Assembly: GCF_030684315.1 (NCBI RefSeq)
Contig: NC_081391.1
Span: 20,668,629 to 20,732,628, forward strand
From: Stegostoma tigrinum
Taxonomy: Eukaryota
Reading direction: 5' to 3'
Length of the DNA stretch: 64,000 bases
In this document: piece by piece, positions 1 through 59,976 of the stretch
How the letters are laid out: each line of letters starts with the position of its first letter
How positions within the stretch are numbered: the stretch's first letter is position 1
Notes under the pieces: model-generated
Told to the model about the DNA's origin: nothing
The model's database searches: none
Seen by the model: the letters and a program-made list of their open reading frames with translations, nothing else
Position numbers and translations under genes: made by a program

Positions 1-200
1 GTGTGGTGCATTTGGAATGAGCTGCGAGAGGAACTGGTGGAGGCTGGTACAGTTAACAACAGGAGATGGTACTTGGCTGTGTCTCTGAAGAGTAAGTGTT
101 CAGAATAATATGGGCAAATACTCATGAATGGGACCAGACTGGTTTTGTATATCTGGTGGACACTGTTGAATGGGACTAAATAGTGAGTTTCCATAATGAC
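1..200 (+). mobile_element. CR1/HER1-type LINE 3' end fragment
   Basis: gtggtgcatttggaatgagctgcgagaggaactggtggaggctggtaca... typical CR1-clade 3' end. Mirror at about 56975-57360. Confidence 0.6.
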
Positions 201-2779
201 TATTCGTCCAACTGAGGAATGGAGTGCGCATCTGAGGGTTTACTCTAACAAGCTGGTGGCTGAGCCCCAACATTACATTTTCTTCATAAAGTTCGAGGAC
301 TAAAGGAGGGGAACAGGAACTTCACAAAAGAAACACTATTTTCCATCTACCTGTCGCCTGCAGGAATGAAAGCCCACCTTAAGGGGCTCTGTTAGACATA
401 TGACAAAACAGGAGAGATCCCAACAGAAAGTTTTAGAGTCCCTTCCAAACAAAAGGATGGAAAGCAACAAAAAAACAATTATCAGTCGACGACTGCCACT
501 GTGTCAGGATCAGGTCTTGAAAAGTAGGAATTTATTTTATTTCAGAGGCTCAGCTTCTACATGAGCAGGAATGGCAGGGAGCTAACCTCCTTCTCACTCT
601 GGGGCCTGCAGAATTTGTAAGAATAACATCCTCTGGCATTTCTGATGATGGTAAGGGTTGTGCTGACATTGAGATGTCCAATTGTGGGAGATATAGCTTG
701 AGTTCATGTCATGCAGCCAATAGCCAGGGCAAGTGTTTGATCGGTGCAAAGGGAGATGTTGAAGAGCAGGTATGAAAAGTGAATTCACTGAAGCCAATCT
801 ATGTGGAAAAGTTTGAACTCAGTGTTATCTGTACATCCATCGTTTCCTCATAAAGGATCCTCTTGAACAAACACAAAGAATTGATGGCCAGCTGGGTAAA
901 AGAAGCAACTGTAAAACAATGACGACAAGCCAGTAGCATCTGCCAGTGCTTGACTGTGGAACAATTATTCCAATCCTTGAGTCAGATGTGGCTCATCTCA
1001 CCCACCAAAGCACAGTCCATTCTTTCAAAATACATCCAGGTTGTGTTGTACGGGAGCAGATTGAGTTCAAATCTGTCAAAGTCCAATCGCCCAGCAAAGC
1101 CCAAATTGTCACAACCCCGTGCGAAGAAGGGCCAAGGAGGAAACAATGCCAAATGAGCTTGGAACAGTGTGTCAGGCAGGATCGATTCCAACAACAGAAG
1201 GATAGCTTCAGTGAGAAACTGCCAATATATTTACATCTTGTAGATACCATTCGCAGAACAAATACACTTTAGCAAAACGAAAATCTTCTTCAACTGATGA
1301 CAGTAGCAAGGAATTATGGTCTTGTTTTCAACCGTATAAAAGATCAAATAAATTTGAGCCAAATCAATTTATTTTGTTGAATCTCCTGATCAGATGATAT
1401 TGAACTTCATTCTGCAAAATAAAACATAAATGAGATGCCGATGTCAGATAGAAATTACTGACAGAGGTGTCTCAATTTCTTAAGCTTTCTCTACCCACAT
1501 GCTCGGAACCTTGCACCCGCTCAGGAGTTCTCTACAAAAACATGAGATAAGGCGATTAACCAGTCAGTGTGTCCTTCAACATTGTATTATGAACTTCCTG
1601 CAGTGTATTTATTTGGATATCAACTTGAGAAGAACGTGGCTATCTGTGGTTGATGTTACACAGACAACCAGGGAGTAAGCCAGGAACACCACCTATTCCC
1701 ACAGAGCCAGGCACCACAGTCATTCATCAAAGTCTCTGGTGACCATTGAATGACCATGCGATGTGCATTAGTTTAGAAAAAACCCTTTGTGACCATGGGT
1801 CATTCCCTGCAGCTCAGGTCCATTCTGACCAAGATATTTGTCAATCACCAGATACATTTTCTGTTCAAATGGATGAAAAGTGTCTGTCCCAAGAGGGCTG
1901 TGTGTGGAAGATGATTGGTGGATTCTGATGTCAATCCCATCTGGCCCGTTAAATCTAAAGGAACACATCTCATCACCTGTTCCAGGACCAAACTGCTCAG
2001 AGTTACAGTATGAAGCAACATGGAAACAGACGGTTTGCTCTAACTCATCCATGCTAACCAGGTACCTCAAACTGAACCAGCGACATTGGCCTGCATTTGG
2101 CTCATATCTTTTGTTGAGGGCCAGACCAAACCTCCTCCAAAGACATTAAGAGTGTCATTTTTTATTTTTAAATGTAAGTGACAGTCATTGTGTTCCAGAT
2201 ACAATTTGATTGATCAAACTATTAACTTCAGACAAAGCATGCTTTATTTTTATAGTACAGTTGAAGTACAGACGAAACAAAATGGAAAGTATTGGCTTAC
2301 CTCTCGAATTGCTGAACAGAATAGTAGACACATTAACTATTATTAATTGACTGTTCCAACACAGTGACATCCTGTAAACACACCCTTGGCAAAGGCAGAT
2401 TCAGTGAAATAGATTGACTCACATGCAATTCTAACAGCCGGAGTCCCAGATTGTAGCTATAACAGAGAGAGGAATAAAAGATCCCGTGGCCAGCTCGAAG
2501 ACCTCAGCCACTGCTGAAATTTAAAACTAAAAATCCTGTTTCAGTGGGTGCTTAACTAAACACTCACCACCTTCACCATCACCAAAACCCCCTCCCACAA
2601 TTCCCCACTTACCCACTCCCCCAAGCAACTCGACTCAGATCGCTTTGAATGTTCGAACAGCAATAAAAAGCCTCAATGCCACACAAGTTACTTTCTTGAC
2701 TTTGAGCGATGCGCTCTCCACCTCTGTCACCAGCTTTCTCCATTTGAAACTAAAGGCAAAATACACCTCTTCAAGCCGT

Positions 2780-2925
2780 TGTTTTGTCACACCTTCTACA
2801 CCCTTCCTATTCATGTTCCTGTCCAAATTGCTTTTAAACGTCTCTACGAGGTCCTCCGACAGTTCATTCCAAACATGCACCACCCTCTGCATGAAAAACC
2901 TGCCCCTCCGGTCCCTTTTCAATCT
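2780..2925 (-). mobile_element. CR1-type LINE fragment upstream of the ferritin promoter
   Basis: Translates KRDRRGRFFMQRVVHVWNELSEDLVETFKSNLDRNMNRK, a CR1 ORF2 C-terminus. Paralogs at about 20300-20440, 31935-32070, 35785-35910, 54248-54390. Confidence 0.65.
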
Positions 2926-3279
2926 TCTAGAACGAAGCTAATTGTAAACACTTGGGGTATCGGTGAAACATTTGAGGCAAAAGAATCATCTTTGTTCAGA
3001 TGGTGGAAATCTGCTTCACTCAAGGTAACATTTTTAATCACTTCATCCCTGTCCCAGAATAGACACTTTTTGAGCAACCTGTTCAGGAGGCAGTGGCACC
3101 TGACACCAGTGTCCTCAGAACCAGAGGCATGGACACTGCCACCCCACATATCTATTTACAAACGACCAGCTCGATTGGCCTGCATTGAAAAAACTATCAC
3201 TGCAAAAGCACTTGCTTCATCAAGAATAATTTGCCAAACCTCTGTCTCTGTCTCAGCATTGTCCCCATAACAACCTTTC

Positions 3280-3400
3280 CCTTTTCATTGGTGCCTAGAT
3301 TGATGGGACATTCCTGATTGGATGTTAGGAATTGTCAGTAATCAGTGGTAATGTCATTCACTGGTTGAGTGCAGGATGTTCCCAGGAGTTATAAATACAA
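3280..3400 (+). promoter_or_regulatory. Ferritin core promoter (inverted CCAAT boxes + TATA)
   Basis: ATTGG twice (about 3287 and 3317) and TATAAATA at 3390-3397, about 70 nt before the ATG. The block is conserved in front of every copy. Confidence 0.7.
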
Positions 3401-3464
3401 AAGTTTGTAGTAGAGCGATTTAGTTTTTGTTTGGTCTGGGTAACAGTGAGCAGGAATAGTGAGG

Positions 3465-6295
3465 ATGTCCTCCCAAGTCTGCCAGAACTACCACAAGGAC
3501 TGTGAGGATGCTGTTAACAAGCAGATCAACCTGGAGCTCTATTCCTCTTATGTCTACCTCTTTATGGTGAGGCTTGAGCGTTCACTCTTTCTCCTTGCTT
3601 GCTTTAGGTCACCGTTTTGCCCCCTCCACTGACCCCACTCCCACCACACAAGAAAAGGCAATTAGGGGTGGGCTATATGTTAGTGCTGTCCATGTCCCAT
3701 GTGTTTCCTTGTTGTCTTTTTCATTGTATCTGGGGTGGATACAGTTTCTTTTGAAGTTGACTTTTGAATGTTTCTTCCCTCTACCAAATGCCTCTCCACT
3801 CAACTGATTAAGGAACTTTTGTTTGTCTTAGTAAGGAACTAGCTACTTTGCATTCTCTTTCTTGGGTTTTATTCTTAAGTGTTTTACATTGGGATAAAAT
3901 CCAAGGATTCTTGGAGGATGATTTTTCATGTTGTAAGAACCTGTTCCATTTCTATGCCACAGCAGTTATGCTGCTTGGCCTGCTGTGTTCATCTAGCTTC
4001 ACACTTTATTATCTTGGCTTCTCCAGCATCTGCAGTTCCCACTATCTCACTTCAAGTGAAGTGGCTGACTCTCAAATGAAGCAGTCACTGAGTCCTCCTG
4101 CCTGTTTCTGAAGGGGGATAACCCTGCTGTGTTTCATTAACACTTCATCCTTCAATGATGATGTCTTACATTATTATCCCAATGGCAGGGGATGTTCTCC
4201 CAACTGATGGAAGGCATTACTTTCACCCTTTTGGTGACAAGGTCTCCTGATTACATCCCTTCAGCTGAGTCCTGAAACAAATCTGGGTTCCCTGTTAAAA
4301 TGGAAGTTGGTCTCTTGACTTTGCTCATGATATTCTGAGGAAGCAATGGCTATTGAACAGTTTTTTTCCAAGTTGCAACTCAGCTCCTACTTGCACACAC
4401 ATGGGTCTCATAGGCAAAGTGGGAACAACCTGTGTTAAAATGGAGGTCACATTTGGAGAAGACCTTGAGTCTAGGGGGCAGTCATCTCCTCGGGCTGGTT
4501 GAGTTGACAGATGTCACATGATCCCCTGTAGATGTGCTCACTGCCCTTACAAAGATTGTGGCTGTTTTGTTTGCATTCTGCACTTGTCCTGTGGCTAACC
4601 AATAACTGCCTCATAGTATCCACTTCTGATAGAAGCCAACAGACACCTAATTGGAGTTGGAGAACCAAATGAAGCCTCTCATCAGTCAAGAACTGTCTCT
4701 TGTATTTCTAAACTATGATCTCTAGTTCTGAACTGTATTCCCAGCCCAATGTGTACCCAGATTGCAAGTCCTGAATGTCTAGACATATTTTCTCTTTTTT
4801 GTCTAGTCTGGGGGGGTGCGGGGGGGGATTAAAAAACTCTCTCTCTTGCTGAAGTTTGACTGGATGCGATCTGGAGTTTGCCGGACTCTATCACTATCAC
4901 TTTCTCCTCTTCTCCTAGTCCTTCCACTTTGACCGGGATGATGTTGCCCTGCATCACTTTGCTGCGTTCTTAGGGGAGCAGTCCCATGAGGAGCGGGAAC
5001 ACGCTGAGAAACTGATGGCTTTCCAGAATAAACGTGGAGGTCGAGTTCTCCTGCAGGACATCAAGGTTGGTGTATCCCCCTACATTACACCTACCTGAAC
5101 TAGACATGGATATGAAGCTTGAAATCTGGGGTAATACCAAAAGGTTACATGGTGCGCACTCTTCTCTAGTTTAGTTGCAGCTCACTGCATTGCACTTCCC
5201 TTCAATTTTCACACGAGTGAAGCATCTGTCTCTTCCCTCTCTCCAGAAGCCAGAGCAGGATGAATGGGGCAGTGGTCTGAAGGCAATGCAGAGAGCTCTG
5301 CAGATGGAGAAGGATGTGAACCAGAGTCTGCTGGATCTACACAAACTCTCCTCTGGCAACACTGACCCTCATGTGAGTTTCTAATGTGGGTTTTTTGAAA
5401 GCCTCAGCTGTAGAATTCCTCTGCATTGAGGATCAGTTTTTAATCTGGTAACAAAGGCATGTTGACTGACAGGACACTGGCTAAAGCATTTTCTTGGGCT
5501 GTTAGGCTCTTGAATTGCACGTGTACAGCAATTCATCCTGCCGCAACACCTCCACTCTGGGAGGGTATTTCCTTCAATTTGAAAGAGGGAAGGCAGAAGT
5601 ACTGAGCTGGCTTGTCAGGCCTTGGGATTTTTCAAGGCCTCATTGGTGTGGCCAAATCTCGGGGTTCTGATTTTACAGCAACATCAGAAGCATTTGTCTC
5701 AAAGAAATGGAAGCTTCACTGCTTCCTGGCTGATTCTCTAGCTTTGCTTTCCCCTCTAAGGAAACTGCATGTGAGAATCTGTCTGTATGTTCCCACTTTA
5801 GGCAAGGGGTATGTGTGGGATTATTGTATTGCAACAGTTACTTGTTAGAAATTAGAGACAATTGTTCATTGTCTTAAATTCTTTTGGCTGTAGTTGACCC
5901 ACAACATAACATTCCCACTGACCAGGTGCATTGTATCCAAAACAGCCTGCATCTGTGTTTAAATGAAGTCCCAGTCGGGGCTAAATAAAATATTGGGGAA
6001 GGGGGTTGTGGTTCTGATCGCAAATCCTCTGCATGAGGACTGCATCAGTATCAAACTCCATTGTTCCAGTTCACAGATTGAAAGGTCAATCTGTTGGGGG
6101 AAACTGGTCTTGTTTAAATTCTCTCCTCTTTCTGGTCAGCTGTGTGACTTCCTGGAGAGGCACTACCTGGATGAGCAAGTGAAGATGATCAAGAAGCTGG
6201 GAGATCACATCACCAACCTGAAGAGACTGGGAGCCCCTGACAATGGCATGGGAGAGTACCTGTTTGACAGGCTCACCTTGGGGGACAGTGACTGA
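3465..6295 (+). CDS. Ferritin heavy-chain-like (H/M-type) gene A, 4 exons, 176 aa, apparently intact
   Basis: Exons 3465-3566 ([34 protein letters not shown]), 4919-5065 ([49 protein letters not shown]), 5247-5372 ([42 protein letters not shown]), 6140-6295 ([51 protein letters not shown]). All introns are GT-AG phase 0 at the vertebrate ferritin positions. AATAAA at 6397-6402. Confidence 0.95.
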
Positions 6296-8292
6296 ACTGC
6301 CAGCAGGGAACAAGCTTGTTGTCATGTGTCTGAATGTGAGACCTGTAAAGACTTCTCCTTTTTGTAGAAGCAGCTCCTTGTCCTGTACCAAGTGTAAATA
6401 AACTGCTCAAGGATTGTGTCTTGACTCCCTTTGGTTAACCCTTGTTGTGAGCTGTGCTACAGCTTGATCCTGTTTTGGTTCCGTTGCTGATGGGAACACT
6501 CTCCCTACTGGGCTGTGGGTTTTGCTGTCTGTCTAGACCAGTCAATTTCCTGGACCAGGTTGACTTTGAGACAGTGAGCTGCTTCCTGGAGCCATTCTAC
6601 GATATTCTGTGAGAACCCACAACATTCTTTGAAGGAATTAGCACTGTCCCAGGAACAGTGAAGGGTCAGGTATGGCTCATGGACCTATCCTTCTTGGCAA
6701 AAGCTCCAACTGAGCAGATGGTTGGAAGAACTCAGGAGAAACAAGGGTTTATTGTGAAAGATGGAATTACAGTAACTTAAGCATAACCAATAAATCCAAG
6801 CACTTCTAGCTGTGAACAGAATAACTTTCAAGGTTGTGCTTGTGGGCATTTGCTTTCAATGCTTGTTTCTACAAGCTGTTCAGTATTACAATCAAAAGGA
6901 GCAGGGCAATCTTGTACCCATGCCTCCCTGACAAGGGGTAGTCACTCTACCACTCCAACACCAGGGGCTTTTCAAGCACATCATGCTGAGTGCATGTCTG
7001 AGGGAGAGCAAATCTGACACTCCCCTGGTTGAAACTTTCCTGGTTATTCAAATTTCAGTTCTAGCTCTCTTCCTGGGGAGCATTGACAACTGAAGGCTGA
7101 GGGTAGCGTTAAACAGGTCCTTTGAAGGTGTGGAGGGAAACATTTGGGATGTTTTCCCTTCATTTGTCAGTGCAGGTTTAGGGTTGCCATGTTCTAACTC
7201 TCAGGCTGCGGTGAGGTCCCTTTGGGAATATGGCATTCAGGTCCGTGATCATCTTGCTGCAGTCACTGTGTTTGTGTTTTTCTGAAACCTCAAGGTTCAG
7301 GAAAATGACGTGTGAGGTCACAGTAAGCCGTGGCGAACCTCCTTGGACTGTCAGAGGCTGAAGGGGGGTACATGGGCAGAGTAAATATCTGAAGACTAAC
7401 ATTCCAGGGTTGGGGCAAGCTGAGGGCATAGTTGACAGGTGAGAGAGAGGAGAGCCTTAAAGAGGATTTTGGGACAACCTTCCACCCAGGGTGGTGAATC
7501 TGGAATGAGCTGCTGTTGGAGGCCGGTCCAGCCCCAAAATAGAGAAGGCACTGGCCTCGCTACAAGAATCGTAGTCCAACAGAGGTATTTTCATTGCATC
7601 AAAACGTTTATTCTAATATATTTGTGGTTGAACCAAACAATGTATGCTCTTCAAAAAGTTCAACAATTCAAGGAGGGGGACATAAACCATTCTAATATAA
7701 ATGGTTTTTTTTTTCCACATGGCTATCCTCTGCAAGCAAAAAACCCATCCTCCAATGCAGTTGGTCAAAGGGCTGGAACAACTAACAAAACAGGAGAGAC
7801 GCCAACAGAAATATCAAAATGTCTCCCTCAAAACCAAAATGAGTGAATGCAAATCCACAACCAAGGATTAACAAACCACTGACGGTCTGTCAGGGTCAGG
7901 TCCTGGAAGGCAATCTTTATTTTAATTTTCAAGATCAGCTGCTAACTGAGCTGGAATAGCAGGAAGCAAAGCTTGTTCTAGCAGTGGGTACTGCAAAAGT
8001 CATGGGAAGAATAACATTCTCTGGCATTTCTCATGATGATGGCGAGGGTTCTGCTGACATTCAGACTTCAGATGCTCCGTTTTGGGAGACACAGCTTGAG
8101 TTCATGTTGTACTGCCAACGGCCGGGGGAAATGCCTATCATTTCACAGGTAGATGTAGAAGCTAAGGTATGAAGTGATTTCACAGAAGCCAATCCATGTG
8201 GAAAGCTTATGAACACCATGTAATCTGTCATCCATCATTTCCTTGTAAAGGACCCTTCTAAGCAAACACAAAGAATGATCCCTTGATGCCCA

Positions 8293-10020
8293 GTGATAGT
8301 GGGAACTGCAGATGCTGCAGAATCCAAGATAATGAAATGTGAGGCTGGATGAACACAGCAGGCCAAGCAGCATCTCAGGAGCACAAAAGCTGACGTTTCG
8401 GGCCTAGACCCTTCATCAGAGAGGGGGATGGGGTGAGGGTTGTGGAATAAATAGGGAGAGAGGGGGGATGTGGACCGAAGATGGAGAGAAAAGAAGATAG
8501 GTGGAGAGGAAAGTATAGGTGGGGAGGTAGGGAGGGGATAGGTCAGTCCAGGGAAGACAGACAGGTCAAGGAGGTGGGATGAGGTTAGTAGGTAGATGGG
8601 GGTGCGGCTTGGGGTGGGAGGAAGGGATGGGTGAGAGGAAGAACAGGTTAGGGAGGCAGAGACAGGTTGGACTGGTTTTGGGATGCAGTGGGTGGAGGGG
8701 AAGAGCTGGGCTGGTTGTGTGATGCAGTGGGGGGAGGGAACGAACTGGGCTGGTTTTGGGATGCAGTGGGGGAAGGGGAGATTTTGAAGCTGGTGAAGTC
8801 CACATTGATACCATGTGGCTGCAGGGTTCCCAAGCGGAATATGAGTTGCTGTTCCTGCAACCTTTGGGTGGCATCATTGTGGCACTGCAAGAGGTCCATG
8901 ATGGACATGTCATCTAAAGAATAGGAGGGGGAGTGGAAATGGTTTGCGACTGGGAGGTGCAGTTGTTTATTGCGAACCGAGCGGAGGTGTTCTGCAAAGC
9001 GGTCCCCAAGCCTCCGCTTGGTTTCCCCAATGTAGAGGATGCCACACCGGGTACAGTGGATGCAGTATACCACATTGGCAGATGTGCAGGTGAACCTCTG
9101 CTTAATGTGAAAAGTCATCTTGCGGCCTGGGATAGGGGTGAGGGAGGAGGTGTGGGGGCAAGTGTAGCATTTCCTGCGGTTGCAGGGGAAGGTGCCGGGT
9201 GTGGTGGGGTTGGAGGGCAGTGTGGAGCGAACAAGGGAGTCACGGAGAGCGTGGTCTCTCCGGAAAGCAGACAGGGTTGGGGATGGAAAATTGTCTTGGG
9301 CGGTGGGGTCGGATTGTAGATGGCGGAAGTGTCGGAGGATGATGCGTTGTATCCGGAGGTTGGTGGGGTGGTATGTGAGAACAAGGGGGATCCTCTTTGG
9401 GCAGTTGTGGCAGGGGCGGGGTGTGAGGGATGTGTTGCAAGAAATATGGGAGACGCAGTCAAGGGCGTTCTCGACCACTGTGGGGGGAAAGTTGCGGTCC
9501 TTGAAGAACTTGGACATCTGGGATGTGCGGGAGTGGAATGCCTCATCGTGGGAGCAGATGCGGCGGAGGCTGAGGAATTGGGAATAGGGGATGGAATTTT
9601 TGCAGGAGGGTAGGTGGGAGGAGGTGTATTCTAGGTAGTTGTGGGAGTCGGTGGGCTTGAAACGGACGTCAGTTACAAGCTGGTTGCCTGAGATGGAGAC
9701 TGAGAGGTCTAGGAAGGTGAGGGATGTGCTGCAGATGGCCCAGGTGAACTGAAGGTTGGGGTGGAAGGTGTAGGTCAAGTGGATGAACTGTTCGAGCTCC
9801 TCTGGGGAGCAAGAGGCGGCGCCGATACAGTCATCAATGTAACGGAGGAAGAGGTGGCGTTTGGGGCCTGCGTAGGTGCGGAAGAGGGACTGTTCCACGT
9901 AACCTACAAAGAGGCAGGCATAGCTAGGCTTCACCAGCTTCAAAATCTCCCCTTCCCCCACTGCATCCCAAAACCAGCCCAGTTCGTCCCCTCCCCCTAC
10001 TGCACCACACAACCAGCCCA
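8293..10020 (-). mobile_element. Penelope-like retroelement (Neptune-type), 5'-truncated, with a short inverted 5' piece
   Basis: ORF 8648..about 9925 with RT motif (SYACLFVGYVEQ...LRYIDD), Cys-rich linker (CNRRKCYTC) and GIY-YIG endonuclease ([30 protein letters not shown]). Pyrimidine-rich tail. 9929-10020 is an inverted copy of the 3' region. Confidence 0.92.
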
Positions 10021-10102
10021 TCACATCACCAACCTGAAGAGACTGGGAGCCCCTGACAATCTCATGGGAGGGCACCTGTTTGACAGGCTCTCACTCAGCT
10101 GA
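10021..10102 (+). pseudogene. Ferritin exon-4 3' fragment fused to a Penelope-like element
   Basis: [26 protein letters not shown] directly abuts the PLE. It and its 3' flank resemble the LTLS-type gene at 62.6 kb. Confidence 0.88.
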
Positions 10103-10885
10103 TGAGCTTTGGAACCATTTTCCAATTTTCTCACTGGATAATGAAATAAATTTCAGTCCAACTGACTTGCTTCTGTATAGCTCATTACATGTAGAATGAT
10201 CGAGATCAAAGATTGCTAGCTGTATGAACTGATCTTGTGAAAAATGTCATGTGTTATTGGTATGCTTCACTGCGTTCCAATGTTATCCAGTGTTAGTGAC
10301 CTCTCCAGGCTACACTTGAGCTGCATGGGGTTTTGGGCTGTGGAGGTGGGGGGATGTGGAGTGACAGTTGCCAATTCAGAGTTGGCTGCTTTCGGGGGGG
10401 CTCCTTTGATTTTAATGTCATGTACTCTCAATCCTGATCCGTATCAACACTGCTTAACATATGGCATTTGGAAACACCATTACTGAGCTACAGCATGCAA
10501 TTAGAAAGGGGATAAAACTTCGACTTGCTTTCAGTAAGACGAAAGCTACTTCAGCACCTGCCATCAAACACACTGAGGATAATGACATTGCAAGGCAAGC
10601 TGCCTTGTAGTTCAACCTGCAGACGTTCTACAGAAAGTCAAGTAGTCTTTACCCTTTTGAGCAGAAAGTAAAGCATTCTTGATACTATTCTCAACTAGTG
10701 TCAGATCAATTTCTTCTGTTTTATTTTCATTTGTCTTCATCAGCAAGAATGTTTCCCATTCCGTGCAGGGATAAAACGATTACGCTGCTGTGTGTAACAG
10801 AATGCAACGTATGCTTCAGTTCTCCAGGTAGGTTCATGGTATTCATTCACCTTGCCTCAAAGAAACGAGAATCACTGTAGAGGAA

Positions 10886-11866
10886 TCCGACCCCACCACC
10901 CAAGACATTTTTCCATCCCCACCCCTGACTGCTTTCCGGAGAGACCACTCTCTCCGTGACTCCCTTGTTCGCTCCACACTGCCCTCCAACCCCACCACAC
11001 CCGGCACCTTCCCCTGCAACCGCAGGAAACGCTAAACTTGCCCCCACACCTCCTCCCTCACCCCTATCCCAGGCCCCAAGATGACATTCCACATTAAGCA
11101 GAGGTTCACCTGCACATCTGCCAATGTGGTATACTGCATCCACTGTACCCGGTGTGGCTCCCTCTACATTGGGGAAACCAAGCGGAGGCTTGGAGACCGC
11201 TTTGCAGAACACCTCCGCTCAGTTCGCAACAAACTACTGCACCTCCCAGTCGCAAACCATTTCCACTCCCCCTCCCATTCTCTAGATGACATGTCCATCA
11301 TGGGCCTCCTGCAGTGCCACAATGATGCCACCCGAAGGTTGCAGGAACAGCAACTCATATTCCGCTTGGGAACCCTGCAGCCATATGGTATCAATGTGGA
11401 CTTCACCAGTTTCAAAATCTCCCCTTCCCCCACTGCATCCCTAAACCAGCCCAGTTCGTTCCCTCCCCCCACTGCATCTCACAACCAGCCCAGCTCTTCC
11501 CCCCCACCCACTGCATCCCAAAACCAGTCCAACCTGTCTGTGCCTCCCTAACCGGTTCTTCCTCTCACCCATCCCTTCCTCCCACCCCAAACCGCACCCC
11601 CACCTACCTACTAACCTCATCCCACCTCCTTGACCTGTCCGTCTTTCCTGGACTGACCTATCCCCTCCCTACCTCCCCACCTATACTCTCTCCACCTATC
11701 TTCTTTACTCTCCATCTTCGGTCGGCCTCCCCCTCTCTCCCTATTTATTCCAGTTCCCTCTCCCCATCCCCCTCTCTGATGAAGGGTCTAGGCCCGAAAC
11801 GTCAGCTTTTGTGCTCCTGAGATGCTGCTTGGCCTGCTGTGTTCATCCAGCCTCACATTTTATTAT
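10886..11866 (+). mobile_element. Penelope-like (Neptune-type) 3' fragment, left arm only
   Basis: GIY-YIG ORF 11081..11551 plus tail. Absent at the mirror position. Confidence 0.9.
11776..11803 (+). ncRNA. Minimal hammerhead-ribozyme-like core in PLE tail
   Basis: CTGATGA-a-GGGT-ctag-GCCC-GAAAC-GTC. Related copies at 8419-8392 (-), 48765-48792 (+) and about 59885-59912 (+). Stem I pairing is weak in the monomer. Confidence 0.55.
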
Positions 11867-12409
11867 CCAGATCCAAAATGTTAGCTTTCCTGCTCCTTTG
11901 GTGCTGCTTGGCCTGCTGCGATCATCCAGCTTTACAACTCGTTACCTCAGATTCTCTTGCATCTGCAACTCCCATGATCTCAAATGGCTCTAATCTACTT
12001 TGAATAGCAAAGCTATGGCAATCTTTCAAAGGAACCTGTACTTGGGCCTGGGGTCACGGTCAGATTTAGAAATAGCCTCGTTGAGGGAATAGAGAGATGT
12101 GCATTCTCGGTTTCCTCACTTCCCACACAAAGAATATCAATGTATGAAAACCTGAATTGAACATCGACTCTATTGATTACTTCAAACTGAGATTGGTGAC
12201 TATCTGTTAAGAACAGTGTGTAAAGACAATATGGTAGGTTGCACAGGTTTTAAAGACAAGCCAAGTAAGATCCAGTTGAATGGTGCAATATGCTTGAGGA
12301 GTTGAAAACCCTCCTCCTGTTTGCATGGTCCAAATAATCTGAAACTCCTCGTATTTATTGGAATACAAGCTCGGCTCTTTCAGTTACATACCATTCCCTG
12401 ACTGAAATT

Positions 12410-12520
12410 AGTGCCTAGATTGATGGGAGATTTCTGATTGGCCATCAGTGATTGTCAATTGTCATTGGTAACATCATTTGCTGGTTGAGAGCAGGATATC
12501 CCAGGAGCATAAATACATGA
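12410..12520 (+). promoter_or_regulatory. Ferritin core promoter, gene B
   Basis: Same block (ctgattgg...gcaggat.tcccaggag) with CATAAATA at 12508-12515. Confidence 0.65.
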
Positions 12521-12582
12521 GCTTGTGGGAGAAAGGCCTAGATGTAGAGTTCTCCCAGTGGTTGTGAGTGGGAATAGTGAAG

Positions 12583-16134
<3,552 letters not shown>

Positions 16135-17169
16135 ACTGACTGCAGGGAGTGAGCTTGTTGTGAGTGTCTGAATAGGAGACCTGGTAGAGACTCCTTTTAG
16201 TAGGAGCAGCTCATTGCCCTGTACCAAGTGTAAATAAACTGCTCAATATTGGATTGTGTCTTGCCTCCCTTTCTTGGTTAATCCTTGCTGTGAGCTGTGC
16301 TATAGCTTGATCCTGTCTTAGTTCTGTTCCTGCTCATGGGAACACTTTGCACTGGGCTGTGGTTTCACTGTCTGGCCCAGATAATTGCCTGAACCAAGCT
16401 GCCTTTGAGATGGTGAGTTGTTGCCTTGAGCCACTCTACTAGATTGTGTGTGGGTAGAGCCACACTCCCCTTGAAGGAATTAGCACTGACTCAGGAACAG
16501 TGAAGGGTGAGGAATTGCTCAGGGACCTAGCCTTCTTGGTAGAAGGCTAGGAGCCATTGGGGAAATGCAAGGGATATTGTGAATGCTGGAATTAGTTAAT
16601 GAAGCATAACTAACAAATCCAGGCATTTCTGGGTTTGAATAGAACAACTTTTGATGTTGTGCTTGTGGAAATTTGCTTTCCACATTTAACTTCTCTACAA
16701 GCTGTTCAGCATTTAACTCAAAGGGAGCAGGTGCAGCTTGAACCCATGCCTCCCTGACAAGGGCTAGTCACACTACCACTGCACCACCAGGGGCTTTTCA
16801 AGCACATCATACTGAGTGACTCTCCCTAGTATGTACAATCTGACACTCCCCCTGATTGGGACTTGTCTGGTTTGTGACATTTCAGTTCTGATTAGGTTCC
16901 TGGGGAGCATTGACAAATGAAGGCTGAGGGTGCAGGTGAACAGGTTCTTTGAAGGCGTGGATGGAAACATTTGGGGTGTTTTCCCTTCATTTCTTAGTGT
17001 ATTCAGTACAGGATTGGGGACACCATGTTCCAACTGTGGAGGGCAGTGGTGAGGTCCCTTCAGGAATATTGCATTCAGTGATCATCTCCCTGCTGTCAAT
17101 GTTTGCCTTTCTTGCTTTTCCTGAAAGCTCAAGGACCAGGAAAAAGTTCTGCAAGAAGGCAGAGTAAGC

Positions 17170-17540
17170 TATGGCTAACCTCCTTGGACTGCCAGAGGCT
17201 GAGGTGGGACTTTAGATGATAAAACAACGGGGGGCATGGACAGAGTAAATAGCTGACGATGAACATCCCAGGGTTTGGGCAAGCAGAGGGTGTAGTTGAT
17301 TAGTTGAACGGTGGGGGGAGAGAGATTTAAACAGGACTGTGGGGCAACTTTCCCACCCAGGGTGGTGAGTCTGGAATGAGCTGCTGCTGGAGGTTGGTCC
17401 AGTGACAAAATAGAGATGGACCCCACCTCAGTAAATGATTAGGAATGGTTCAGAGGGATATAGCCAGATGGGGCCAGACCAGTTTTGGATAAATGGTGGG
17501 CATAGATGGACTTCAGGTATTAGTCATTCTCCATGCTGAA
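17170..17540 (+). mobile_element. Degenerate CR1-type LINE 3' fragment
   Basis: ggggcatggacagagtaaatag...caactttcccacccagggtggtgagtctggaatgagctgc. Paralogs at about 7330-7520, 28850-29230, 38710-39080, 49650-49850. Confidence 0.55.
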
Positions 17541-17720
17541 TCTTAGTCTTAGTCCAACTGAGGTTTTATCAGTGCTTTACAAGGTTTATTCTAATGCATT
17601 TGTGGTTGAACCAAACGATGTATGTTCTTTGTAAAGTTCAACGATCCGAGGAGTGGGGCATAAACTATTCCAACACACGTGCCCTTTTCCATGTCGTTAT
17701 CAGCTGCAAGCAAAACAACC

Positions 17721-17874
17721 CCTCCTACAATGCAGTGATAATGGGAACTGCAGATCCTCTCTGATGAAGGGTCTGGGCCTGAAATGCCAGCTTTTGTGTT
17801 CCCGAGATGCTGCTGGGCCTGCTGTGTTCATCCAGCCTCACATTTTATAGTCTTGGAGCCTCCTACAATGCAGT
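17721..17874 (+). mobile_element. Mini Penelope tail insertion (122 bp) with 16-bp TSD
   Basis: cctcctacaatgcagt at 17721-17736 and 17859-17874 flanks a PLE tail. The paralogous site near 7750 is empty. Mirror copy at about 38376-38529. Confidence 0.8.
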
Positions 17875-19344
17875 TGGTTAAAGACCTATAACAGACAGCT
17901 AACAAAGCAGTAAAGAGAGCAACAGAAATATCTGTGTTCCTTCCCAAAACCAAAATGAGGGGAAGCAAATCTGTAACCAAGGATTAGCACCACTGACGTT
18001 TTGTCAGGGTCAGATTCTGTACAGCAATTTTCATTTTAATTTTCAAGATCAGCTGGTGGGAAGCAAAACTTGTTCAAACATTGGGTACTGCAGAAATATG
18101 ACGAATAACATTCTCTGGCATTTCTGATGATGACAAAGGTTCTGCTGACATTCAGACTTCAGATGCTCTATTTTGGGAGACACAGCTGGAGTTCATGTTG
18201 TACTGCCAATGGCTGGGGGAAATGCCTGATCATTTCACAGGTATATGTAGAAGCTAAGGTATGAAGTGATTTCACAGAAGCCAATCCATGTGGAAAGCTT
18301 ATGAGCACCATGTAATCTGTCATCCATCATTTCCTTGTAAAGGACCCTTCTAAGCAAACACAAAGAATGGTCCCTTGATGCCCATCTGGGGAAAGGAAGC
18401 AAGGTCAAAACAAGACTACAAGCCAGTAGCATCTGCCAGTGCTTGACTAGGGAACAACTATTCCAATCCTTTTAGACTCAAATCAATTTATTCAGTTGAA
18501 TCTACTCAGTAGATGGTACTGAACTTCATCCTACCATAATAAAACAAATACACAAGATTCTTATAACAGATAGAAATTATCTCTAAAGGGGTCTCAATTT
18601 CTTTAACGTTCTCTGCCCACATGTTCTGAAATCTGCAACCACTCAGGAGCTCTCTGCAAAAACTTGACACAAGACCATTAACAAGTGAGTGTGTCCGTCA
18701 ACATTGTATTATACATTTCCTGCAGTGTATTTATTTGGATTAGGACGTGAGAAGAACGTGACTATCTGTGGTTTATGTTACACAGACAACCAGGGAGTAA
18801 GCCAGGAACACCAACTATTCCCACAGAGCCAGGCACCATTGTCGCTCATCAAAGTCTCTAGTGACCATTGAATGACCATGTGACATCCATTAGTTGGGAC
18901 AAAGCCCTTTGTGACAAATGGACATTCCCTGCTTCTCAGATCCACTATGACCAAGACATCCGTCAATGTCCAGATACATTTCCAGTTCGGGTGGGTCGGC
19001 TGTATCCGGTGATGGTGTCTGTCCCGAGAGGCCTGTGCGTGGATTGTGATCGGTGGATCCTGATGTCAATCACTGGTTGCCTGATCTGGCCCATCAAACC
19101 CAAAGAGTTAAATCCAAAAACACATCTCATCACCTATTCCAGGAGCGAACTGCTGAGTGTTACAATGTGAAACAGCTCAGAAACGAACACTTTGGTCCAA
19201 CTCACCCATGCGAGCCAGGGATCTCAAACTGAACTGATCCCATTAGTAGGCATTTGGCTCATATCTCTTCTTGAGAGCCAGACCAAGCCTCCTCAAATAC
19301 TCAGAGACACACAGCATGGAAACAGACCCTTTGGAATATTTTTC

Positions 19345-19690
19345 CATCGGAGTGAGAAGGTTGAGAGGTGACTCATAGAGGTTTATGAAATAATGAGGGG
19401 CATAGATTGTGTTTTTGTCTTCTGTAGTATCTAGATTGCAAGACTAGGATGCACATCTGTAAGGTGAGAGAAGAGGGAATTTAAAAATACGTGAGGGGCA
19501 GATTTTTTCCAGAAAGGGTTATTTGTGTGTGGAATGAATGTCCAGAGGAAGTGCCGGATGTAGGTACAATTACAAAGGTAAAAGACATTTGGATAGGTAC
19601 ATGATCGGGAAGGTTTTGGAGGGATCTGGGCCAGAATCAGGCCGTGGAATTAGTTTAGTTTGGGATTACGGTTGGCGTGGACTGGTGAAG
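19345..19690 (+). mobile_element. CR1/HER1-type LINE 3' fragment
   Basis: ggttgagaggtgactcatagaggtttatgaaataatgaggggcataga...tggaatgaa..ccagaggaagt...aaagacatttggataggtacatg. Mirror at about 36565-36905. Confidence 0.65.
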
Positions 19691-20799
19691 AGTGTCATAT
19701 ATTTTCTTGTTTTAAACGTGTTACAGATGAAATTTGATTGATCAAACTATTAACTTCAAACAAAGCACGTTTTATTTTTATACGACAGTTGAAGTACAGG
19801 CAAAACAAAAAGGAAAGTATTATCTTACCTCTCGAAATGCTGAACAAAATAGTAGACACATTAACTAATACTAATTAACTGTTCCAACACAGTGACATCC
19901 TGCAAACACACCCTTGACAAAGGCAGATTCAGTGAAAAAGATTGTCTCACATGCAATTCTAACAGCTTGTAGATGTAACAGAGAGAGGAATAAGAGCTCC
20001 CACGGCCAACTCAAAAACCTCAGCGACTGCTGAAATTTAAAACAAAAATTCCTGGTTCATTGGGTGCTTGACTAAACACTCACCACCTTCACCATCACCA
20101 AATCCCCCTCCCACAATTCCCCACGAACCCACTCCCCCAAGCAACTCAACTCAGGTCGCTTCGAATGTTCGAACTCCAATAATAAGCCTCGATTCCTCAC
20201 AAGTTACTTTCTTGACTTTGAGTGAAGTGCTCTCCACCTCTGTCACCAACCTTCTTCATTTGAAACTAAAGGCAAAATACAACTCCTAAAGCCGTTGTTT
20301 TGTCACACCTGCTGAACCCTTCCTATTCATGTTCCTGTCCAAATTGCTTTTAAATGTCTCTACGAGGTCCTCCGACAGTTCATTCCAAACATGCACCACC
20401 CTCTGCATGAAAAACCTGCCCCTCCGGTCCCTTTTCAATCTTCTAGAACGAAGCTAATTGTAAACACTTGGGGTATCGGTGAAACATTTGAGGCAAAAGA
20501 ATCATCTTTGGTCAGATGGTGGAAATCTGCTTCACTCAAGGTAACATTTTTAATCACTTCATCCCTGTCCCAGAATAGACACTTTTTGAGCAACCTGTTC
20601 AGGAGGCAGTGGCACCTGACACTCGTGTCCTTAGAACCAGAGGCATGGACACTGCCACCCCACATATCTATTTATAAACGACCAGCTCGATTGGCCTGCA
20701 TTGAAAAAACTATCACTCCAAAAGCACTTGCTTCATCAAGAATAATTTGCCAAACCTCTGTCTCTGTGTCTCAGCATTGTCCCCATAACAACCTTTCCC

Positions 20800-20920
20800 T
20801 TTTCATTGGTGCCCAGATTGATGGGACATTCCTGATTGGATGTTAGGAATTGTCAGTAATCAGTGGTAATGTCATTCACTGGTTGAGTGCAGGATGTTCC
20901 CAGGAGCATAAATACAAGAG
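20800..20920 (+). promoter_or_regulatory. Ferritin core promoter, pseudogene C
   Basis: Same conserved block, CATAAATA at 20907-20914. Confidence 0.55.
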
Positions 20921-20968
20921 TTTGTGGTAGAGTGGTTCAGTTTTTATTTGGTCTGGGTAATAGTGAAG

Positions 20969-23433
20969 ATGGTTTCCCAAGTATGTCAGAACTACCACCA
21001 GGACTGTGAGGATGCTGTTAACAAGCAGATCAACCTGGAGCTCTATTCCTGGATGTGAGTTTGCTCGCTGAGCTGGAGTGTCAGTTTTCAGACATTTTGT
21101 CACCATTCTAAGTAACATCATCAGTGAGCCTCTGATGAAGTGCTGGTGTCATGTCCTGCTTTCTATTTATCTGGCTAGGTTTCCTTGGGTTGATGTCATT
21201 TCCTCTTCTTTGGCTCCAAATCAATCTGCCATCTTCTGAGAAAATGTGTTGGTTGATGGAGTTCCGGTTGGAATGACATGCTTCTAGGAATTCTTGTACA
21301 TGTCTCTGTTTGGCTTGTCCTAGGATGGATGTGTTGTCCCAATCAATGTGGTGTCCTTCCTTATCTGTATGTAAGGATACGAGTGATAGTGGGTCATGTT
21401 GTTTTGTGGCTAGTTGATGTTCATGTATCCTGGTGGCTGGCTTCCTGCCAGTTTGTCCAATGTAGTGTTTGTCACAATTCTTGCAAGGTATTTTGTAGAT
21501 GTTCGTTTTATTTGTTGTCTGTATAGGGTCTTTTCAGTTCATTAGCTGCTATTTTAGTGTGTTTGTGGGTTACCCTGATGCCAAGGGGTCCGAGTAGTCT
21601 GGCAGTCATTTTGGAAATGTCTTTGTAGGGGAGAGTGGTTATGGTTTCTGAGCCTGTTTGGTCTGTTTGGGTTTGCTGAGGAATCGGCGGACTGTGTTCA
21701 TAGGGCAGCCATTCTTTTTGAATACGCTGTATAGGTGATTTTTCTTCTGCTCTTTGTAGTTCCTCTGTGCTGCAGTGTGTGGTGGCTCGTTGGAATAATG
21801 TTCTAATGCAGCTTCGTTTGTGGGTGTTGGGATGGTTGCTCCTGTAGTTCAGTATTTGGTCCGTATGTGTTGTTTTCCTGTAGACACTGGTTTGAAGTTC
21901 CCCATTGACTGTTCGCTCTACTGTGACATCTAGGAATGGCAGTTTGCTGTTGTTCTCCTCCTCTTTTGTGAATGTTATGCCAGTAAGGGTATTATTGATA
22001 GTCTTGAAGGTTTCCTCTAATTTGTTTTGTTTAGTGATGACAAAGGTGTCGTCCACATAGTGGACCCAAAGTTTGGGTTGTATGATTGGCAGAGCTGTTT
22101 GTTCAAGTCTCTGCATTACACCAGACACCCCCAACCTCATCAGCAAGGACAACATCATCAAGCTAGTGGACCTATGCCTTGCCACCCACTTCACTTCCAA
22201 TAACAAAACCTACAGACAAACCAACAGTACACCCATGGGATCTCCGATATCAGGGTTCTTAGCAGAGGCAGTAATGCAGAGACTCGAACAAACAGCTCTG
22301 CCAATTATCCAACCCAAACTTTGGGTCCGCTACGTGGATGACACCTTGTTTCATTTAGTGATGACAAAGTTAGAGGAAACCTTCAAGACCATCAACAATA
22401 CCCTTTACTGGCATAACATTCACAAAAGAGGAGGAAAACAACAGCAAACTGCCATTCCTAGATGTCACAGTAGAGCGAACAGTCAATGGGGAACTTCAAA
22501 CCAGCGTCTACAGGAAAACAACACAAACGGACCAAATACTGAGCTACAGGAGCAACCATCCCAACGCCCACAAACGAAGCTGCATTAGAACATTATTCCA
22601 ACGAGCCACCACACACTGCAGCACAGAGGAACTATGAAGAGCAGAAGAAAAATCACCTATACAGCATATCCAAAAGGAATGGATGCCCTATGAACACAGT
22701 CTGCCGTGTTTTTTTTTCCCTCAGCAACAAACCCAAACAGACAAAACGGGCTCAGAAACCATAACCACTCTCCCCTACATCAAAGACACTTCCGAAATGA
22801 CTGCCAGACTACTCGGACCCCTTGGCATCAAGGTAGCCCACCAACACTAAAACAGCAGCTAATGAACTTAAGACTCTATACAGACAACAAATAAAAATGA
22901 ACATCATCTACAAAATACCTTGCAAGAACTGTGACAAACACTACATTTGACAAACTGGCAGGAAGCTAGCCACCAGGATACATGAACACCAACTAGCCAC
23001 AACGACATGACCCACTATCACTCGTATCCTTACATACAGATGAGGAAGGACACCACTTTGATTGGGGACAACACATCCATCCTCGGACAAGCCAAACAGA
23101 GACATGTACGAGAATTCCTAGAAGCATAGCATTCCAACTGCAACTCCACCAACAAATACATTGGCTCCAAAAAAAAATCAATCTACCATTCCCCCTGAGG
23201 AAAAAGAACAGGAAATGACATCACCAACCCAAGGAAACCTAACTAGATAAATAGAAAGCGGGACATGACTCCCAGTGTGGCTTCGGAGGATCACTGATGA
23301 TGTTACCTAGAAATGGTGACAAAATGAATGAAAACTGACCTTCCAGCTCAGCGAGCATACTCACATCCAGAACCTCAACCTGAGCTACATATCTTCTCAA
23401 AAGCTCTATTCCTCTTATGCCTACCTTTCCAGG
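20969..23433 (+). pseudogene. Ferritin pseudogene C: exon 1 only, split by a 2.35-kb retroelement
   Basis: [27 protein letters not shown] at 20969-21049 resumes at about 23414 (SYAYLSR|gtgag, ends 23433). Intron 1 runs to about 24210, then a PLE. No exons 2-4 follow on this strand. Confidence 0.9.
21051..23401. mobile_element. Penelope-like element of a second family (Penelope/Poseidon-type): two 5'-truncated copies head-to-head, 12-bp TSD
   Basis: Plus copy about 22120-23401 (PMGSPISGFLAEAVMQRLE...WVRYVDD; decayed GIY-YIG NIIYKIPCKNCDKHYI). Minus copy 21051-about 22119. TSD agctctattcct at 21039-21050 and 23402-23413. Confidence 0.9.
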
Positions 23434-24460: not shown

Positions 24461-26572
24461 AGGTTCCGTGGTGTCAGTTCTGGAAGTGGAGGCGGTGACT
24501 GCAGGAGCAGGGATAAACGTTGCTGAAGGGGCTCGATGTCCTGGATGTAGAGGTTGTAGATGGTCACGTTTGGGGATAAATTGGGAAGGCTTGAATGTGG
24601 ACTGTAGCCCATTGGGGATGATCTGGTTCCGTAGGCAGGTGCTAGCAACCCCTGGCAACGTCTCTCCCTGCGAGTCCTGAAACAGACACTCACAGCCATG
24701 CGCCGGCATCCCCAGGCACTGCAATCCAGCTCAGAGCTTCCCTCTCCCAGACCTGCAAAGGACCTCTGCTGTTTTCTATCCTCCGCAGGACCCACAGACT
24801 GAACGCCCAGTTCTACTCAGCTCTACTGGACACCAAAAATCGTAAGTACAACCAACTCACTGGCTCCTGCCACCCACTAGAGGATTCCTCCACCTCCCAA
24901 ATCCCCAGCCTGACCCTGCACCTCCCCAACCATGTATCCGCCGCCATTGACCATGAGGACACGGCCGGGGACCGTGAACGCGACCGCTACTGCAGTCACT
25001 GCCTCCACTTCCAGAACGAACACCACAAACATCAGCCTCAGCCCGCTTCTATCTCCTTCCCAAAATCCACAAATCCGCCTGCCCTGGTCGACCCATTGTC
25101 TCCACCTGCTCCTGCCCCACCGACCTCATCTCCACCTATCTGGACTCCATTTTCTCCACCTTGGTCCAGGAACTCCTACCTACATCCGTGACACCACCCA
25201 TGCCCTCCACCTCCTCCAGAACTTCCAATTCCCTGGTCCCCAACACCTCATTTTCACCATGGACGTCCAGTCCCTATACATCTGCATTCCCCATGCAGAT
25301 GGCCTCAAGGCCCTCTGCTTCTTCCTGTCCTGCAGGCCCGGCCAGTCCCCCTCCACCGACACCCTCATCAGCCTAGCCAAACTCGTTCTCACCTTCAACA
25401 ACTTCTCTTTCGATTCCTCTCACTTCCTACAGACATGGGGGTGGCCATGGGCCCAAGCTTTGCCTGCCTCTTTGTAGGTTACGTGGAACAGTTACTCTTC
25501 CGCAACTACACTGGCCACCCAAACCCCATCACACTCATCTTCCTGCAAAAAATTCCATCCCCTATTCCCAATTCCTTCGTCTCCGCCGCATCTGCTCCCA
25601 GGATGAGGCAATCCATTCCCACATATCCTAGATGTCCGCATTCTTCAAGGACCGCAACTTCTCCCCCGCAGTGGTCGAGAAGGCCCTCGACTGTGTCTCC
25701 CGCATTTCCCGCAACACATCCCACACACCCCACACCCGCAATAACCGGCCAAAGAGAATCCCCTTGTCCTCACATACCACCCCACCAACTTCCGGATACA
25801 ACGCATCATCCACTGACACTTCTGCCATCTACAATCCGACCCCACCACCCAAGACATTTTTCCATCCCCACCCTTGTCTGCCTTCCGGAGAGACCACTCT
25901 CTCTGTGACTCCCTTGTTCGCTCCACACTGCCCTCCAACCCCACCACACCTGGCACTTTCCCCGGCAACCACAGGAAGTGCCACACTTGCCCCCACACCT
26001 CCTCCCTCACCCCCATCCCAGGCCCCAAGATGACTTTCCACATTAAGCAGAGGTTCACCTGCACATCTGCCAATGTGGTATACTGCATCCACTGTACCCG
26101 GTGTGGCATCCTCTACATTGGGGAAACCAAGCGTAGGCTTGGGGACCGCTTTGCAGAACACCTCCGCTCGGTTCGCAACAAACAACTGCACCTCCCAGTC
26201 GCAAACCATTTTAACTCCCCCTCCCATTCTTTACACGCCATGTCCATCATGGGCCTCCTGCAGCGCCATAATGAAGCCACTGGAAGGTTGCAGGAACAGT
26301 AACTCATATTCCGCTTGGGAACCCTGCAGCCCAATGGTATCAATGTGGACTTCACTAGCTTCTAAGTCTCCCCTTCCCCGACTGCATCCCAAAACCAGCC
26401 CAGCGCATCCCTACCTCCCTAACCTGTTCTTCCTCCCACCTATCACATCCTGCCACACCTCCATTCCCCACTACTAACCTCGTCCCACCTCCTCGACTTG
26501 TCCGTCCTCCCTGTTCTGATCTGTCCCCTCCCTACGTCCCCACCTATACTCTCCTCTCCACCTATCTTCTCC
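24211..26572 (+). mobile_element. Rearranged, degenerate Penelope-like (Neptune-type) element with inverted 5' part
   Basis: Plus part about 24655-26572 has RT pieces ([29 protein letters not shown]) and GIY-YIG (25874..26302), with frameshifts and deletions. 24211-about 24655 is inverted 5' material (24464-24505 is complementary to about 24990-25030). Confidence 0.85.
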
Positions 26573-30266: not shown

Positions 30267-31252
<986 letters not shown>

Positions 31253-35256: not shown

Positions 35257-35304
35257 CTTCACAATTACCCAGACCAAATAAAAACTGAACCACTCTACCA
35301 CAAA

Positions 35305-35425
35305 CTCTTGTATTTATGCTCCTGGGAACATCCTGCACTCAACCAGTGAATGACATTACCACTGATTACTGACAATTCCTAACATCCAATCAGGAATGTC
35401 CCATCAATCTGGGCACCAATGAAAA
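35305..35425 (-). promoter_or_regulatory. Ferritin core promoter, pseudogene E
   Basis: Same block on the minus strand, CATAAATA at 35318-35311. Confidence 0.55.
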
Positions 35426-35876: not shown

Positions 35877-35950
35877 GAAATTTGGACAGGAACATGAATA
35901 GGAAGGGTTCAGCAGGTAACCCTTCCTATTCATGTTCCTGTCCAAATTTC
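35877..35950. repeat. Perfect 33-bp inverted repeat with 8-nt loop
   Basis: gaaatttggacaggaacatgaataggaagggtt-cagcaggt-aacccttcctattcatgttcctgtccaaatttc. Confidence 0.9.
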
Positions 35951-40121: not shown

Positions 40122-43635
<3,514 letters not shown>

Positions 43636-43697
43636 CTTCACTATTCCCACTCACAACCACTGGGAGAACTCTACATCTAGGCCTTTCTCCCACAAGC

Positions 43698-43810
43698 TCA
43701 TGTATTTATGCTCCTGGGATATCCTGCTCTCAACCAGCAAATGATGTTACCAATGACAATTGACAATCACTGATGGCCAATCAGAAATCTCCCATCAATC
43801 TAGGCACTAA
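43698..43810 (-). promoter_or_regulatory. Ferritin core promoter, gene B'
   Basis: CATAAATA at 43710-43703 plus a CCAAT box. Confidence 0.65.
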
Positions 43811-47081: not shown

Positions 47082-47163
47082 TCAGCTGAGTGAGAGCCTG
47101 TCAAACAGGTACCCTCCCATGAGATTGTCAGGGGCTCCCAGTCTCTTCAGGTTGGTGACGTGA
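47082..47163 (-). pseudogene. Ferritin exon-4 3' fragment (mirror of 10021-10102)
   Basis: [26 protein letters not shown] abutting the PLE at 47164. Confidence 0.88.

Positions 47164-58412: not shown

Positions 58413-59976
<1,564 letters not shown>

Follow-up and report, generated by a model that had tools for sequence, protein, structure and literature searches.

Ferritin genes without an iron-responsive element in an inverted array of the zebra shark Stegostoma tigrinum: a separate cartilaginous-fish lineage of candidate maternal ferritins

Layout of the array, promoters and 3' ends

The window, i.e. the whole 64-kb stretch of zebra shark (Stegostoma tigrinum) DNA analysed here, holds nine ferritin copies, termed A to I, which form an inverted array among retroelement fragments. 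Four copies are intact or near-intact and five are broken or partial. A large inverted duplication (1-57172), in which positions 1-10877 correspond to 57172-46305 (98.6% identity) and 11866-21050 to 44360-35175 (96.7%), accounts for two mirror pairs, A/G (98.6%) and B/F (96.7%). Gene A (3465-6295, + strand; exons 3465-3566, 4919-5065, 5247-5372 and 6140-6295) is intact with an open frame of 176 aa. Gene B (12583-16134, +; exons 12583-12684, 15150-15296, 15467-15592 and 15979-16134) is intact as well; its spliced protein is 100% identical to P0156, the Stegostoma tigrinum RefSeq entry XP_059496509.1, and contains a full ferritin domain (Pfam PF00210, 136 bits against a cut-off of 24.5). On the minus strand follow gene F (40118-43784; TATA box 43703-43710, ATG 43635), where one additional base in a run of G close to the end leads to a frame of 175 aa, and the intact gene G (50874-53858; TATA box 53775-53782, ATG 53707, 176 aa). 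Genes A, B and G share four exons and three GT-AG introns, all in phase 0.

The remaining copies have suffered in different ways. Copy C (20832-21050, +) has a promoter, a TATA box (20907-20914) and an ATG (20969), and its exon 1 is broken off at 21050. Copy D (30267-31551, -) kept the CCAAT part and exons 2-4 with a late premature stop, while TATA box and exon 1 are gone. Copy E (34084-35393, -) has a promoter, a TATA box (35311-35318) and an ATG (35256), together with a stop in exon 2, a damaged exon 3 and no exon 4. Copy H (58413-58568, -) consists of exon 4 alone with its 3' UTR, and copy I (62646-63616, -) of exons 2-4, its exon 1 being expected past the end of the window. Fragments with GIY-YIG and reverse-transcriptase similarity just below the Pfam cut-offs lie at 11036-11548 and 21511-22585, and we take them to resemble Penelope-type retroelements. 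Related copies are found near 8300-9600, 25500-26400, 47500-48900 and 58900-60000; pieces of ferritin exon 4 are located inside some of the retroelement copies (10020-10091 and 47093-47164). Upstream of copy E, a near-perfect 68-nt inverted repeat (35880-35947) reaches 40.6 bits against a microRNA model, the threshold of which is far higher. As the mirror copies lack it, it is likely a local fold-back duplication.

Four sequencing runs (X1-X4), which belong to one study and at most two samples, provided contigs that include introns. Among the pieces listed, a difference-free contig spans positions 3359-3509 in three of the four runs, therefore the leader of gene A is not an assembly error. The summed depth of exon 1 was some hundred times that of intron 1, which is not a measure of copy number; this excess is a hint at many ferritin copies in the genome.

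The promoter module of gene A (3287-3389, +) contains two inverted CCAAT (ATTGG) boxes, with CTGATTGG at 3314-3321, and is followed by the TATA box TATAAATA (3390-3397), the TATA-to-ATG stretch (3398-3464) and the ATG at 3465. In gene B (promoter and leader 12434-12582, +), CTGATTGG is located at 12434-12441 and the TATA box at 12508-12515. From the start of the TATA box to the ATG there are 75 nt in A, B, F and G and 62 nt in C and E, which leaves 67 and 54 nt, respectively, after the box; the short spacing pointed out in a first-pass annotation of this DNA was thus measured, and its coordinates were correct. Placing the transcription start site (TSS) 30 nt past the TATA box, we infer leaders of approximately 32-45 nt for the array, with the TSS of gene A near 3420 and its leader about 45 nt long. 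The pattern TGATTGG-N55-80-YATAAATAC matched six times, once ahead of each of the six copies with an exon 1, and not at all in 100 shuffled sequences. Between A and B, identity is 79% in the CCAAT module, 90% in the TATA region and 86% in the 3' UTR, and drops to 52% in the leader, 55% in intron 1 and 51-59% in far-upstream and flanking DNA. Judged by these values, selection acts on the promoter and the 3' UTR, and no hairpin of the leader is under selection.

No E-box is shared among the promoters of the window. The promoters of B (12434-12445) and F (43784, -) carry CTGATTGGCCA, which comes near the Y-box/NF-Y element of frog oocyte promoters. Elements of this kind are also present in ordinary CCAAT promoters.

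At the 3' end, a Pumilio-type element of gene A (6393-6402, +) overlaps the AATAAA signal in the 3' UTR. The motif TGTAAATAAA, as defined in 10.1101/2023.10.18.562922, occurs five times in the window, each time at a poly(A) signal and overlapping AATAAA: at 6393 and 16229 on the plus strand and at 40021, 50776 and 58315 on the minus strand, belonging to A, B, F, G and H. These five sites go back to a single ancestor and do not count as independent; in copies D and I the element is lost. In frog gastrulae, according to the same preprint, Pumilio elements situated close to the 3' end promote deadenylation. A conserved CPE was not found in the 3' UTRs of the window, where a TTTTA word occurs in B alone.

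Iron-responsive elements, CAGTG words and upstream exons

Cytosolic ferritin of vertebrates is the textbook target of control by iron-responsive elements (IREs) and the iron regulatory proteins (IRPs), and M ferritin mRNAs, too, carry a 5' IRE. IREs have been found in teleost ferritin cDNAs (PMC2774873, PMC2902525), and the ferritin IRE is described as ancestral to animals (10.1101/2020.05.01.071498). Its absence from the array is therefore a loss.

With the Rfam model RF00037 (IRE_I, gathering threshold 34 bits) no IRE was found in the 64-kb window on either strand, be it at the gathering score or at E<=10, and 121-nt pieces with the leaders of A and B, scanned at E<=10, gave none either. A second model, R2, was built from four fetched IREs and run unfiltered, so that its training IREs match by construction; it gave at most 3.1 bits (E 0.61) for the leader of A and 0.8 bits for that of B, the best match in the window having 11.3 bits. 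The first-pass annotation had seen no copy with an exon 1 that bears the C-bulge, 5-bp stem and CAGUGN hairpin, and had proposed the Rfam scan as a check; pattern, Rfam and R2 scans all agree with it. As a control, IRE_I scored 53-56 bits in all three vertebrate ferritin cDNAs with a 5' UTR (of six loci given), which are stray contigs of mammal and teleost ferritins, and 36.6 bits in two out of nine metagenome loci. In the five control loci with a readable distance, the IRE loop lies 130-295 nt before the ATG. Furthermore, 24 out of 136 loose ends of contigs from X1-X4 were viewed, 30 nt each, and none contained an IRE-like sequence, which is a weak negative. The pattern scan returned two strict IRE-like hairpins, at 5559 (-) and 51609 (+), which were rejected because they lie antisense inside intron 3 of A and G.

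Scans of metagenomes, genomes and viruses yielded ferritins of invertebrates, mammals and teleosts, or no match, but no mRNA of shark FTH1 or of the single M-like gene. Among the fetched records, an intronless ferritin gene on a plant-metagenome contig of 77 kb is preceded, at a distance of about 90 nt, by an IRE-like hairpin of 23 bits (L008:2893-2934). Vertebrate ferritin cDNAs and proteins were also met as contaminants in records of bacterial genomes (L012, L013, L014; P0226, P0256, P0289, P0327).

The leader of gene A contains the word CAGTGA (3444-3449, +), which represents one instance of a short repeat unit, AA(C/T)AGTGA, and that of gene B contains CAGTGG (12556-12561, +). Both had been noted before as having flanks that cannot pair, and as missing from C and E, and this is what we see: in the loop of A and G one out of five upper-stem pairs forms, without a bulged C, in that of B and F the sixth base is a G, outside CAGUGH, and the leaders of C and E have no CAGTG, 13 nt being absent at the repeated unit. 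The suggestion that these words are decayed IREs did not hold. In an ungapped alignment the words of A and B are offset by 6 nt and occupy different columns, and other genomic copies have mostly T, not C, at position 3444 (5, 6, 8 and 9 contigs in X1-X4) and mostly G at 3442; one contig has a 13-nt deletion at the unit. At the window's own frequency, a CAGTG is expected by chance in approximately 8% of 45-nt leaders. A fairly recent decay in place could explain why AA precedes the word of A, as it does in real IREs of the control alignment, and why this word stands at a cap-proximal distance. However, the different columns, the minority status of C at 3444, the single pair without a bulged C, the score of 3.1 bits and the frequency of chance occurrence all speak against it, and we regard it as the least credible of the readings considered here. 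The identity of 52% between the A and B leaders, which is the level of introns, the offset of the words, the T at 3444 and leaders that are short compared with 130-295 nt make it more likely that an IRE-bearing leader was lost as a whole, long ago.

An IRE could also reside in an untranslated exon further upstream. Yet among the 29 YAG sites that lie no more than 80 nt from one of the six ATGs, the pyrimidine fraction never exceeds 0.60, whereas it is >=0.70 at each of the 19 real acceptors of the window; CAG|TG as acceptor of an upstream exon was rejected on the same comparison. Thus, the upstream untranslated IRE exon, which the first-pass annotation named as the finding that would speak against its view, did not appear, and judged from the sequence such an exon is unlikely for array genes.

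Gene models of other sharks bear on the same point. In the basking shark model P0031, the residues YKYKSL are found 23 codons ahead of the ferritin Met, and A of the window has the same six residues at 25 codons, where they span its TATA box. In the horn shark model P0055, AGCS..SINTR stands 26 codons before the Met; copy C has both parts around its TATA box, in two frames. Both models read through a TATA box 69-79 nt before the ATG and contain no IRE peptide, which argues for a short leader without IRE common to three shark orders. An IRE-derived peptide is present in none of eight N-terminally over-extended array-type models, against 12 out of 13 H-type extensions of at least 50 aa. Since most array-type extensions are short (six of eight below 45 aa) and two alone clearly reach the TATA box, P0031 and P0055 provide the strong evidence in this comparison. 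A third protein search added no further over-extended models of the array type. From these alignments we infer that the IRE-bearing leader was lost before carpet, horn and mackerel sharks split.

Could IRPs nevertheless still control these mRNAs, by way of an untranslated exon further upstream, another TSS or an IRE of non-canonical form? The TSS used here is derived from the TATA box, the window contains just 3.4 kb upstream of A, and IRPs bind some non-canonical hairpins too. In spite of these points we hold such control to be very improbable, as there is no IRE on either strand of the 64 kb, including 10 kb upstream of G, no YAG resembles an acceptor, the TATA box keeps its distance in three shark orders, and the leader drifts at the rate of an intron.

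Family position, selection and protein features

Two trees of 57 and 36 rows, hand-chosen from about 320 fetched proteins, contain three groups of chondrichthyan ferritins: FTH1, a single M-like gene, and the array. The array together with one Callorhinchus gene (P0285) forms a clade with support of 99/97 and 98/94 in the two trees. All three groups exist in the zebra shark (FTH1 P0307, M-like P0294, array P0156). Its FTH1 is on another chromosome than the array, and the M-like gene is on the same one; in all 12 species for which both are on record, array and single M-like gene share one chromosome-length contig. This suggests a local origin of the array from the M/L locus. In AU tests the sister group of the array could not be placed (p 0.08-0.32): sisterhood with H was not rejected (0.27), with shark H alone p was 0.078, and for a grouping with M/L it was 0.32 with the backbone unresolved. 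Array and H chains are separate supported clades, and the array does not come out as orthologous to FTH1. The phylogeny against shark ferritins, likewise proposed in the first-pass annotation, therefore sets the array apart, and on these trees it is a chondrichthyan ferritin lineage distinct from both shark FTH1 and the single M-like gene.

We take E27, Y34, E61, E62, H65, E107 and Q141 (human H numbering) to be the ferroxidase ligands. All seven are present in A, B and G, and each site is kept in 77-83 of 83 array proteins. The ratio dN/dS was 0.10-0.20 in five of six pairs and 1.04 for A versus G (eight nonsynonymous and two synonymous changes). Codon comparison thus shows purifying selection between the A/G group and the B/F group. 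Part of the array drifts, as follows from the A/G ratio together with the five broken or partial copies. These two features, and the retroelement fragments and the large inverted duplication, are also what a largely neutral birth-and-death expansion by repeats and inversions would produce, in which the IRE disappeared early by accident and just a small number of copies are of importance. We consider such an origin unlikely, because of the low ratios in the other five pairs, because promoter, TATA box and 3' UTR (86%) are conserved far above the intron level, and because expansions are kept in many shark orders.

At position 23 (human FTH1 numbering) none of the 83 array proteins has Arg; Lys is found in 78 of them and in the Callorhinchus member, and all exon-1 copies of the window encode it at codon 19 of exon 1, which equals human FTH1 Arg23. 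Position 19 is Asp in 68 of 83 array proteins, gene B having Asn, and position 144 is Met in 78 of 83. Ala19 and Arg23 are both kept in 21 of 21 single M-like and 32 of 32 H-like proteins. Human FTH1 no longer binds NCOA4 when it carries the replacement R23A or A19Y (PMC11076521). Lys23 and Asp19 may therefore weaken the NCOA4-driven turnover of array ferritin. This weaker ferritinophagy is a prediction, since replacing Arg by Lys is mild, residue 19 of gene B is Asn, and the position of human Asn22 is occupied by Ser in shark FTH1; the latter means that the human rules for NCOA4 may not transfer to sharks.

Possible function and comparison with known ferritin systems

For the Greenland shark a cluster of more than 200 ferritin copies has been reported, which is common to the white shark and ovary-specific by RNA-seq (Sahm et al., 10.1101/2024.09.09.611499); the preprint gives 155 'FTL' and 179 'FTH1' copies in clusters, the largest being ovary-specific. 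Like the array, these clusters are a very large and ancient expansion, likely of the same family, but the copies are labelled FTH1 or FTL there, whereas the array forms a clade of its own, separate from shark FTH1. The equation of both is indirect, since no Somniosus protein was among our matches. In the accessible text of the preprint IREs are not mentioned and the word 'iron' is absent. Ferritin mRNA is furthermore abundant in ovaries of teleosts (PMC1488847, PMC2262088); for the zebrafish fthl genes, an IRE status was not found in the parts of the zebrafish papers examined.

The explanation we favour, with some reserve, is that the array represents a third ferritin lineage of cartilaginous fishes, organized in tandem, with a TATA box 62-75 nt before the ATG and without an IRE, and that it probably encodes a maternal ferritin expressed in the ovary, the amount of which would depend on transcription and gene dose rather than on IRP1/2. 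Expression in the ovary is likely by analogy with another shark. A strong CCAAT/TATA promoter multiplied by many copies would yield abundant ferritin mRNA, the translation of which IRPs would be unable to block as there is no 5' hairpin. Growing oocytes might in this way build ferritin shells before the iron arrives, and the egg ferritin would then store iron for the large yolky embryo and buffer oxidative damage, with the Pumilio-type site at the poly(A) signal possibly helping to remove this mRNA from the embryo. FTH1 and the single M-like gene, whose IREs are presumed, would be retained for ordinary iron-regulated storage. A specialised, iron-independent family had already been suggested in the first-pass annotation; its expanded, intron-containing and IRE-less character and a likely specialised role stand, with the oocyte fitting best in view of the Greenland shark preprint, and its derivation from decayed IREs does not.

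The intact ferroxidase centre and a CCAAT plus TATA promoter that is not tissue-specific would equally suit an array without IRE that serves the defence of somatic tissues, be it by withholding iron in an immune response or by protecting from oxidative stress or ferroptosis, and that is induced by transcription in liver, spleen or blood cells, and ferritins are generally induced by stress (PMC11719527). However, the sole statement on expression that we found, for the Greenland shark, is ovary-specific, and we think a defence role unlikely.

The yolk ferritin of the snails Biomphalaria and Lymnaea, as described in PMC10799875, also lacks a 5' IRE and is a reproductive ferritin alongside IRE-type soma ferritins. 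It differs in having a signal peptide and a 42-aa insertion, in being secreted and in its independent origin. The array proteins of the shark, with 176 aa, align end to end with cytosolic chains and have neither signal peptide nor 42-aa insertion, therefore they are likely cytosolic. Compared with M ferritin of fish and amphibians, the array proteins have the same 176 aa, four exons and intact ferroxidase centre, and their best matches among solved structures are M chains; unlike these, they form a separate clade with Lys for Arg23, Asp for Ala19 and Met144, no IRE and a very high copy number. FTMT and FTHL17 are paralogues of ferritin that are not controlled by an IRE and whose expression is biased towards the gonads; FTHL17 is intronless and without ferroxidase activity, and FTMT has a mitochondrial leader. 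FTMT is intronless, too (PMC11719527). The genes of the shark array, in contrast, contain three introns, and their proteins lack a leader peptide and retain an intact ferroxidase centre. An analogy with FTMT and FTHL17 drawn earlier is therefore weak, and in function the yolk ferritin of snails is the closer analogue, while the presence of introns that was set against them (three, all GT-AG) is right.

What was already known is the expansion of shark ferritins and its expression in the ovary, from the Greenland shark preprint, and the existence of egg ferritins without IRE in invertebrates. A literature search that covered few subscription journals found no report on the IRE status of shark ferritins, on a loss of the IRE or on a separate lineage. 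An intron-containing lineage without IRE, catalytically intact by sequence and under selection across shark orders, would be a natural experiment in which iron storage is uncoupled from iron sensing. The absence of the IRE would also explain how a ferritin cluster of many copies could raise its output undamped by IRP. Shark copies called FTH1 or FTL would belong to a lineage of their own, and this affects the interpretation of the shark ferritin expansion.

A more far-reaching proposal, which we put forward tentatively and with considerable doubt, is a dedicated egg ferritin of cartilaginous fishes that pre-dates the split of sharks and chimaeras, exists in hundreds of copies, escapes both IRP (no IRE) and NCOA4 (Lys23/Asp19), and is the vertebrate counterpart of yolk ferritin, with a ferroxidase-dead partner of the same lineage. 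If true, the shark ferritin expansion would be a reproductive adaptation and not a longevity trait.

Two further groups of proteins were noticed among the fetched sequences. A second Stegostoma ferritin subfamily (P0006, P0007, P0009, P0191) is encoded on the chromosome of the array and has no close copy in the window. It has Lys23 and, at the ferroxidase ligand E62, a Lys, which is L-like, and it groups weakly (80/80) with the array. The copies termed 'FTL' in the Greenland shark preprint may correspond to these proteins, which may also act as a heteropolymer partner. Six M-like proteins of frogs (P0022, P0038, P0059, P0075, P0089, P0096) have Lys or Gln at the ferroxidase ligand E27; the two of them that were tested in a tree formed a branch of their own, and these variants are possibly another egg-type ferritin.
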